Below, piece by piece: positions 131 to 1,085 of a stretch of 20,803 nucleotides of DNA (the first letter of the stretch is position 1; each line of letters opens with the position of its first letter). Source of the DNA: a virus (lineage: Duplodnaviria > Heunggongvirae > Uroviricota > Caudoviricetes); IMG/VR virus record IMGVR_UViG_2690316131_000021; one strand, written 5' to 3'. The notes beneath the pieces were generated by a model. That model made no database searches and had not been told where the DNA came from. It saw nothing but the letters and a program-made list of their open reading frames with translations. The position numbers and the translations under genes were made by a program.

Positions 131-304
131 AAAATCATCCTTTTATGAAAATCAACGTTTTTTGAGCACTCGCACACAAAAAATTACCGCATTGGTTGCA
201 ACGACAACCTTCATTTTGCGGAGCATATGACAAATAAAGTACGGGTGCGTTGAGGATGCCAGACACATCAGAGGTGGCGGGAGATTACTCCCCTGCCTGG
301 TCTC

Positions 305-460
305 TTACTTCTCAGATTCGTAGTCTACGAAGACAGCGACCTCCGTCTGGCCGGTTCGGATTCGTACCTCGCAGAAGTCTTTCCTCGTTACCAGTGCTAT
401 CACTACGACGGTAATACAGATGACGATCAGGGCGATTAACATCGCCTTTTGCTGCTTCAT
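305..460 (-). CDS. Hok-family type I toxin (51 aa, HokD/HokC-like)
   Basis: Hand translation MKQQKAMLIALIVICITVVVIALVTRKDFCEVRIRTGQTEVAVFVDYESEK; AAGGAG SD upstream; matches Hok/Gef family signature from memory. Below ORF-track size cutoff. Confidence 0.7.
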   Translation of the reverse strand: MKQQKAMLIALIVICITVVVIALVTRKDFCEVRIRTGQTEVAVFVDYESEK

Positions 461-635
461 AGCCTACTTCTCCTTGCCTTTCGGCACGTAAGAGGCTAAC
501 CTAAGTTTGTAAGTCATAGATTTGGCCTCAGATTAATGTTAAGCGTCCTGCAAGACGCGTAATGTTAACTGGGGCTTTTCTCTGTCTGCCTTACGGCTGC
601 ATGCCCGAGGCAGACAGCCTCAAGCACCCGCAGCT

Positions 636-663
636 ATTCTACAGTAAAAACTCGCGCTTTCAA
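636..663 (-). promoter_or_regulatory. Sigma70-type promoter for the hok mRNA (-35 TTGAAA, 16-nt spacer, -10 TAGAAT), overlapping the Q stop codon
   Basis: Read on the - strand; predicted start about 629 coincides with the 5' element that pairs with the mRNA 3' end (241..255). Confidence 0.5.
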
Positions 664-1085
664 TTTCCCGCACGTCCGGCAAACTGACTGGCCTGTGATC
701 CTGATGGTTCACGCTCAACGTACCTGTCCATTTCCAGCTTTACTCCCTGCATGATCAACATCCCCTCAATAACACCTTCTGCTTTTTGCAGTACCCGCCC
801 GGCCCAGCAATCAGAGCGCCCATGCTTACGGCCCAGTGACATAAGCGTCATCCCGAACACATAATAATCATACAGAAAATCATGCAAATCGCTGTTATTG
901 ACGTTCAGTTGCGCCATGCAATTGCTGATAATCAGCGCATCGTCATCGGTACACTGAGGCCGTGATTTAACCTTTGACGGGATCAGCCCCTTAAATCCGG
1001 CGGCAATGGGCGACCAGCTCACATCCTCATGATTATTGGCCACCCATGCGCCCCAGCGTTCAAGCACCTGCTGAATATCACGCAT
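660..1085 (-). CDS. Late-gene antiterminator Q, QuuD-like
   Basis: ORF 660..1169; the part from [22 protein letters not shown]... resembles DLP12 QuuD as recalled; start at the internal ATG 1085 forms an ATGA-type overlap with ninH; lies at the end of the nin region. Confidence 0.55.

Follow-up and report, generated by a model that had tools for sequence, protein, structure and literature searches.

A hok/sok-type toxin-antitoxin cassette at the head of a putative cargo island between the antiterminator gene Q and the late promoter of a lambdoid prophage

The locus directly downstream of the antiterminator gene Q in this lambdoid prophage is best explained as a canonical hok/sok cassette of the hokW/hokD subtype, which stands first in a cargo island between Q and the late promoter pR' and would not be a Q-dependent late gene. 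We give this joint reading a probability of roughly 80%. Judged by its sequence, the locus is a hok/sok type I toxin-antitoxin cassette and adds one more member to a family that is well known. Its segment 642..235, which runs from the −10 hexamer of the hok promoter to just past the fold-back element, is 91% identical in DNA to hokW-sokW of the phages 933W and Sp5. Unless a relative is named, coordinates refer to the window, which is the whole stretch of 20,803 nt that was analyzed (IMG/VR record IMGVR_UViG_2690316131_000021).

The hok gene (305..460, minus strand) encodes a peptide of 51 residues and is preceded by a Shine-Dalgarno sequence, AAGGAG, at 475..470 on the same strand. The peptide matched the Pfam profile HOK_GEF (PF01848) with 77.2 bits (E = 7e-22) against a cut-off of 22, and its residues 6-47 covered the whole profile. 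It also aligned with hokD copies and with HokW, from which it differs at 4 of the 51 positions (47/51 identical). The original prediction of a 51-residue Hok-family toxin on this strand is therefore borne out. An Rfam match to RF01794 was obtained at 629..455 (118.4 bits, E = 6e-28, gathering score 59) and spanned the full model, 1-157. This model is named "sok", yet it describes the leader of the hok strand; the hok leader structure, with its 5' tac/ucb hairpin and the region targeted by Sok, is thus present according to RF01794. Of 5426 complete E. coli genomes, 4691 contain homologues of hok. The conservation statements below refer to 90 unique hokW-like loci, 89 of which come from IMG/VR, the remaining one being that of the window.

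The predicted full-length hok mRNA (236..630, minus strand) is about 395 nt long. Its 5' end would lie at 629-630, the RF01794 model beginning at 629, and its 3' end shortly after the fbi element, within U-rich sequence at 238..232. The 5' element, tac (GCGGGTGCTTGAGG; 618..631, minus strand), is complementary to the fold-back inhibition element, fbi (CCTCAACGCACCCGT; 241..255, minus strand). Between 631..618 and 255..241, 14 pairs are formed with a single bulged C (C249). This duplex has an energy of −24.9 kcal/mol, which was not reached in any of the 300 shuffled versions of the 3' region. A 16-nt 5' probe was used for this comparison in place of duplex prediction with the whole leader; long-segment prediction of the whole leader against the 3' region over-extended the duplex and performed no better than shuffles. 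In the minimum-energy fold of the 395-nt RNA (630..236), the 5' and 3' ends are closed by the tac-fbi pairing (z = −6.7). When the last ~36 nt are removed, the 5' end instead folds onto AAGCCCC (578..572, ucb), which gives the Rfam consensus hairpin. The leader hairpin was located at 582..617 (minus strand) by the Rfam alignment and the folds, and consists of 9-nt arms, CTGTCTGCC (617..609) and GGCAGACAG (590..582), around an 18-nt loop. The fold-back and the leader hairpin expected in a transcript of ~390 nt were thus both recovered by folding, but two placements in the original prediction had to be corrected: the 5' partner of the fold-back is 631..618 and not 620..633, and the hairpin is not a stem-loop of 9+8+9 nt at 574..609. 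The core fbi pairs are invariant in the 90 loci, and hence they carry no covariation signal beyond conservation. Compensatory differences occur in more distant hok loci: R1-like loci have GGCGC/GCGCC, and a Citrobacter plasmid has GGUGC/GCACC.

A predicted Sok antisense RNA, with its own promoter and terminator and overlapping the start of mok, is present on the opposite strand. The sok promoter (474..502, plus strand) comprises the −35 hexamer TTGCCT (474..479), a 17-nt spacer, and the −10 hexamer TAACCT (497..502). It was placed by its position relative to the sok promoter of plasmid R1, which we take to be TTGCGC-17-TATCCT. Its −35 hexamer is invariant in the 90 loci, and its −10 hexamer carries one substitution in one locus. 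The predicted Sok RNA (509..579, plus strand, ~71 nt) occupies exactly the segment to which the annotated sokW of 933W maps. This segment folds into a single-stranded 5' tail, a long hairpin (524..576), and a U run (−28.7 kcal/mol, z = −4.7), and the 5' tail is complementary to the mok start codon. The mok ATG (517..515, minus strand) is in frame with hok and invariant in the 90 loci, and position 517 corresponds to the mokW start annotated in 933W. Sok and the mok start, which the original prediction had left unplaced, are thus found at the positions expected from homology. Sok, mok, fbi, and the promoters are unmarked in the RefSeq annotations of the relatives L004-L009.

Transcription of hok would start from a promoter that shares bases with the end of Q. 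The Q gene (660..1085, minus strand) encodes 141 residues from the ATG at 1085 and ends with TGA at 662..660. Its product belongs to the Q21/Q933W family, matches Pfam Phage_antitermQ (E = 9e-48), and is 73% identical in amino acid sequence to Q of H-19B over 138 of the 141 residues. The hok promoter (636..663, minus strand) consists of TTGAAA (663..658), a 16-nt spacer, and TAGAAT (641..636), and it matches the consensus at 10 of 12 positions. A consensus scan of 1..1200 detected three promoter-like sites on both strands, against 0.8 expected; two of them, including the hok promoter, are on the minus strand. The Q stop codon falls within the −35 hexamer. The sigma70 promoter and its overlap with the Q stop were thus both correctly predicted at the outset. 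The −10 hexamer is almost invariant among the 90 loci. However, homology among hok cassettes starts only at ~642 (about −12), and each context brings its own TTGnnn −35 hexamer; the −35 hexamer of the present promoter therefore derives from the local context. A 9-nt match, TGCGGGAAA (673..665), to the region upstream of hokW raised the possibility that the cassette reaches into the last codons of Q, but other hok contexts share nothing upstream of about −12. The left junction of the island can therefore be placed only approximately, somewhere between 642 and 674.

The Q allele (~90% DNA identity or more) was found in 29 of the 5426 complete E. coli genomes, and the same 29 also carry the piece flanking hok, 121..236. 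The gene order in relatives is Q, hok, a perfect GACCAGC array, an N6-methyltransferase gene, and a specificity-subunit gene, followed by sequence that matches the stretch immediately after Q in H-19B and in an Stx2 phage. The island is ~4.4 kb long in the closest genome; its length is ~4.3 kb in PhiR12_3 (L001) and ~3.9 kb in L004. Since the window breaks off within the repeat array, we infer the downstream pR' from three relatives with identities of 100%, 99.7%, and 93% across the Q-hok segment. Coverage of the window by complete genomes reaches 76% at most, in the closest one, NZ_CP148357.1. In all three relatives read, L001, L004, and L005/L011, a pR' of the 933W/H-19B type, TTTAC[A/G]-16-TATCAT, lies downstream of the island (L001 10379..10478; L004 8872..9179; L011 1233..1520; all outside the window). 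Just upstream of it is a remnant of the Q 3' end of ~25 nt, corresponding to the last ~8 codons. In L004 and L005/L011, pR' is followed by StxS with the tR' hairpin and then by tRNA genes; PhiR12_3 shares only the first ~100 nt of the pR' region and then diverges. An Rfam search of the pR'-tR' (StxS) region returned no matching family; therefore, the identification of pR' rests on alignment and on the published distance between the start site and tR'. The start site implied by its −10 hexamer is located 258 nt from the 3' end of tR', and the start site mapped in Sakai by dRNA-seq and Term-seq is 258 nt before tR' (PMC7547250).

The Q protein of the window matches that of H-19B as far as an Arg residue that lies six codons short of the H-19B stop, and it is at about this point that the downstream remnant takes up the sequence again. 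This fits an insertion upstream of the pR' −35 hexamer, and the island apparently entered within the last few codons of Q, just upstream of that hexamer. Because the island lies between Q and pR', Q is separated from its late promoter pR'/qut. In this phage lineage, a few kilobases of cargo, hok/sok and a putatively switchable restriction-modification system, would thus intervene between the two. The junction of Q and pR' can evidently take insertions upstream of pR', and such cargo would be expressed both in the lysogen and at an early stage of induction, not late.

The rest of the island has features of its own. Within 1..130 of the window, a perfect heptanucleotide array (GACCAGC on the minus strand) begins 9 nt after an ATG (130..128) with a good Shine-Dalgarno sequence. 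In relatives, the array runs into a gene for an N6-methyltransferase of ~720 residues, which has a weak nuclease-like match at its N-terminus, and a BcgI-like specificity-subunit gene follows; the repeat and the restriction-modification region span 6592..9232 in L001 and 5458..7629 in L004. Five relatives carry 83, 16, 89, 120, and 23 copies of the repeat, and the 16-copy allele alone is in frame. A sixth relative has an interrupted tract of 404 nt, whose longest perfect run is 44. The array and the genes together look like a phase-variable restriction-modification system on a lambdoid prophage, switched by slipped-strand events. A literature search for phase-variable heptanucleotide methyltransferases in E. 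coli prophages found no description of one.

The promoter at 663..636 may have a second task. It could mainly drive the downstream restriction-modification genes in the lysogen, with hok/sok serving as the operon leader and an addiction module. This would be an added function rather than an exclusive one. From the Q stop to the tRNA genes of the closest genome, the hok promoter and pR' are the only sense-strand promoters that match at 10 of 12 positions, and a scan of the same genome between these two promoters found no sense-strand intrinsic terminator, either up to the methyltransferase start or through the island. The piece flanking hok and the island also occur in the same 29 genomes as the Q allele. 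However, the mRNA of other hok loci ends just past fbi, and weaker promoters with 9 of 12 matches are present inside the island. We therefore regard this additional function as doubtful, although it is conceivable.

A second question is whether the toxin gene is still productive. Extension of mok across the start of hok is a hok/sok trait. Here, the mok frame (464..517, minus strand) is cut to 17 codons by a TAG at 466..464, which is the second codon upstream of the hok ATG and leaves 3 nt before it. Among the 90 distinct loci, only that of the window has this TAG, and CAG stands in its place in 933W, L004, L006, L007, and the 89 viral loci. The same TAG was found in the three relatives of ~99.7-99.8% identity that were examined, including phage PhiR12_3. 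In plasmid R1, the translation of hok requires the translation of mok; because of this dependence, toxin output may be reduced or lost through the mok TAG. The shortened mok frame still covers the hok Shine-Dalgarno sequence, and coupling by reinitiation is thus possible. A nonsense-truncated mok allele also offers a handle on the importance of mok read-through in the subfamily in which mok and hok are in frame.

Decay at this position has occurred in relatives. A +T frameshift in hok, annotated as a pseudogene, is present in two relatives with 93% identity, L004 (5126..5282) and L006 (2126..2282), with the RNA elements kept. Loci at this position therefore do decay, and the toxin gene in this slot seems, as these alleles suggest, to have been lost repeatedly. 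In E. coli K-12, the hok loci on the chromosome are likewise reported, in work attributed to Pedersen and Gerdes in 1999, to be inactivated. Accordingly, one could regard the locus of the window as a decaying, functionally dead remnant in which the mok nonsense codon uncouples hok translation and only the RNAs and the promoter persist; the TAG found in one of 90 loci and the frameshifted relatives would agree with this. However, the hok frame, its Shine-Dalgarno sequence, both promoters, fbi, and the hairpin and tail of Sok are all intact, and the same TAG allele recurs in the three close relatives including PhiR12_3. A stop codon 3 nt before a start codon is moreover at the usual distance for termination-reinitiation coupling. 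A dead remnant is thus unlikely.

The relationship between hok and Q-dependent transcription can be examined at the sequence level. Proteins of the Q21/Q933W family need a Q-binding element and a −10-like pause element just past the start site (bioRxiv 10.1101/651190). The initial transcribed region at the downstream pR' has such a −10-like sequence, TACATT. In the first 37 transcribed bases of hok (630..594), no TANNNT was found, and the only TA begins TAAGGC. A comparison of the hok promoter region with pR' of H-19B gave no alignment, and a search of the sense strand after the hok promoter found no tR'-like terminator. It is highly improbable that the promoter at 663..636 replaces pR', with Q acting there and with hok and the downstream genes being Q-modified late cargo: the promoter does directly follow Q with its −35 hexamer on the Q stop, as the pR' −35 hexamers of 933W and H-19B are also in the last codons of Q, and all 29 genomes with the Q allele have it linked to hok, but a complete 933W-type pR' lies downstream of the island in the three relatives, with tR' in two of them, the pause element required by this family (bioRxiv 10.1101/651190) and any alignment with pR' are lacking at hok, and the −10 hexamer and all the sequence 3' of it are common to hok cassettes far from any Q stop. 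On the grounds of the downstream pR', the missing pause element, and the lack of similarity to pR', the earlier proposal that the locus holds the position of pR', qut, and cargo and may be read through by Q-modified transcription is not supported. Since pR' is downstream of the island, Q-modified transcription should start downstream of hok; hok is upstream of the Q loading site and should not be crossed by it. Early transcription from pR could cross hok. A good promoter on the Q stop codon is thus not necessarily pR'.

The preferred reading, a canonical hok/sok cassette ahead of pR', implies the following course of expression, in which several steps are taken over from the family. The promoter at 663..636 would be constitutive and would produce the ~395-nt hok mRNA, as in other members. 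This mRNA would be inactive while its 5' end (631..618) is paired to fbi (255..241), a pairing that is seen by folding. Slow trimming from the 3' end, as known for the family, would remove fbi, and the 5' end would then refold onto 578..572, which is also seen by folding. By analogy with the family, the refolding would expose the mok/hok translation start, and the short-lived Sok (509..579, plus strand; promoter at 474..502) would pair across the mok start and block translation. When Sok synthesis stops, the 51-residue membrane toxin would be made, again as in related systems.

In the lysogen, hok would be expressed from its own promoter. The early right operon, cII, O, P, NinB, Dam, two antirepressors, NinG, NinH, and Q, is encoded entirely on the minus strand (NinH, NinG, and a KilAC antirepressor are among the Pfam-supported frames upstream of Q); therefore, RNA polymerase starting at pR would reach hok in the sense orientation. 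After induction, hok would thus lie in the path of early rightward transcription through Q. Since no terminator separates Q from the cassette that directly follows it, this transcription would meet the sok promoter head-on. It might switch Sok off, yield 5'-extended hok RNAs, and bring Hok into play early in the lytic cycle, with the promoter at 663..636 perhaps also feeding the phase-variable restriction-modification genes in the lysogen. We consider this scenario to be speculative and rather improbable. If it is true, a toxin-antitoxin system would be wired into the phage switch, and the RecA-dependent loss of sokW RNA, which Takada et al. (PMC8621323) reported and which is unexplained, would gain a concrete mechanism.

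Experimental knowledge of the nearest relative comes from that study. HokW is toxic and counteracted by sokW RNA, and mutation of the sokW promoter unmasks the toxicity (Takada et al., PMC8621323). Upon RecA-dependent induction, sokW RNA disappears and HokW appears, and deletion of the hokW-sokW locus halves phage release (PMC8621323). Toxicity and its neutralization by Sok have thus been demonstrated for the 91%-identical hokW-sokW and would be expected by analogy for the present allele. Likely roles would be stabilization of the prophage or the island, defense against other phages, and/or earlier lysis as for hokW.

Two further observations concern the prophage itself. The region of gene O (6665..7536, minus strand) contains two overlapping open reading frames in different frames, 6979..7536 (185 residues, Phage_rep_O) and 6665..7039 (124 residues), and gene O may be frameshifted in the window. 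The Pfam scan placed cII, O, and P on neighboring open reading frames there. In NZ_CP148357.1, gene O is split by an IS3-family element. At the other end, in 18315..20803, the prophage is integrated beside ybhC (an open reading frame with a pectinesterase domain), and a lambda-type integrase is encoded at 18315..19385. With the integrase and ybhC at one end, the window reaches from the left attachment junction to a point shortly beyond Q.

Compared with hokW-sokW/mokW of the Stx2 phages 933W and Sakai Sp5, the present locus is identical in the position and the 71-nt length of Sok, the mok start, and the pairing of fbi with the 5' end. However, hokW is located near the far right of the phage, next to tail-fibre genes, whereas the present locus abuts the Q stop. 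The −35 hexamer is TTGCGG in 933W and TTGAAA here, and mokW is an in-frame extension of hokW, while mok is cut by the TAG in the window. The locus also resembles hok/sok of plasmid R1 and its homologues flm and srnB of F, in that a 5' element is paired to a 3' fbi ~45-50 nt past the stop codon, followed by a U-rich run, the leader is ~170 nt long, and the promoter of the antisense RNA is inside the mok region. The toxin, however, is only about 40% identical to Hok of R1, which has a plasmid and not a prophage context. The mok frame of R1 differs from that of hok; in the present locus, they share one frame, as in mokW and mokC.

Relative to the pR'-qut-tR' unit of 933W, H-19B, and Sp5 (the StxS region), the hok promoter is similar in that a strong promoter has its −35 hexamer overlapping the end of the Q gene. 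It differs in that it shows no sequence similarity to that unit and lacks both a −10-like pause element and tR'. A further related system is hokD (relF) of the Qin prophage. The present peptide is HokD-like, and plasmid copies annotated as hokD are 82-84% identical. The K-12 hokD lacks its upstream regulatory region, whereas all of the RNA elements are present here. Like hokD and the cassettes of the nin region, the present cassette belongs to the early right operon and is co-oriented with Q. Several lambdoid contigs in IMG/VR carry a hokW-like cassette in the nin region, 1.6-4 kb upstream of Q; carriage of hok in the early right operon is therefore common. Those cassettes are upstream of Q, whereas the present one is downstream, between Q and pR'. 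The exact slot alone is unusual, and it is a rare position for a hok/sok cassette.
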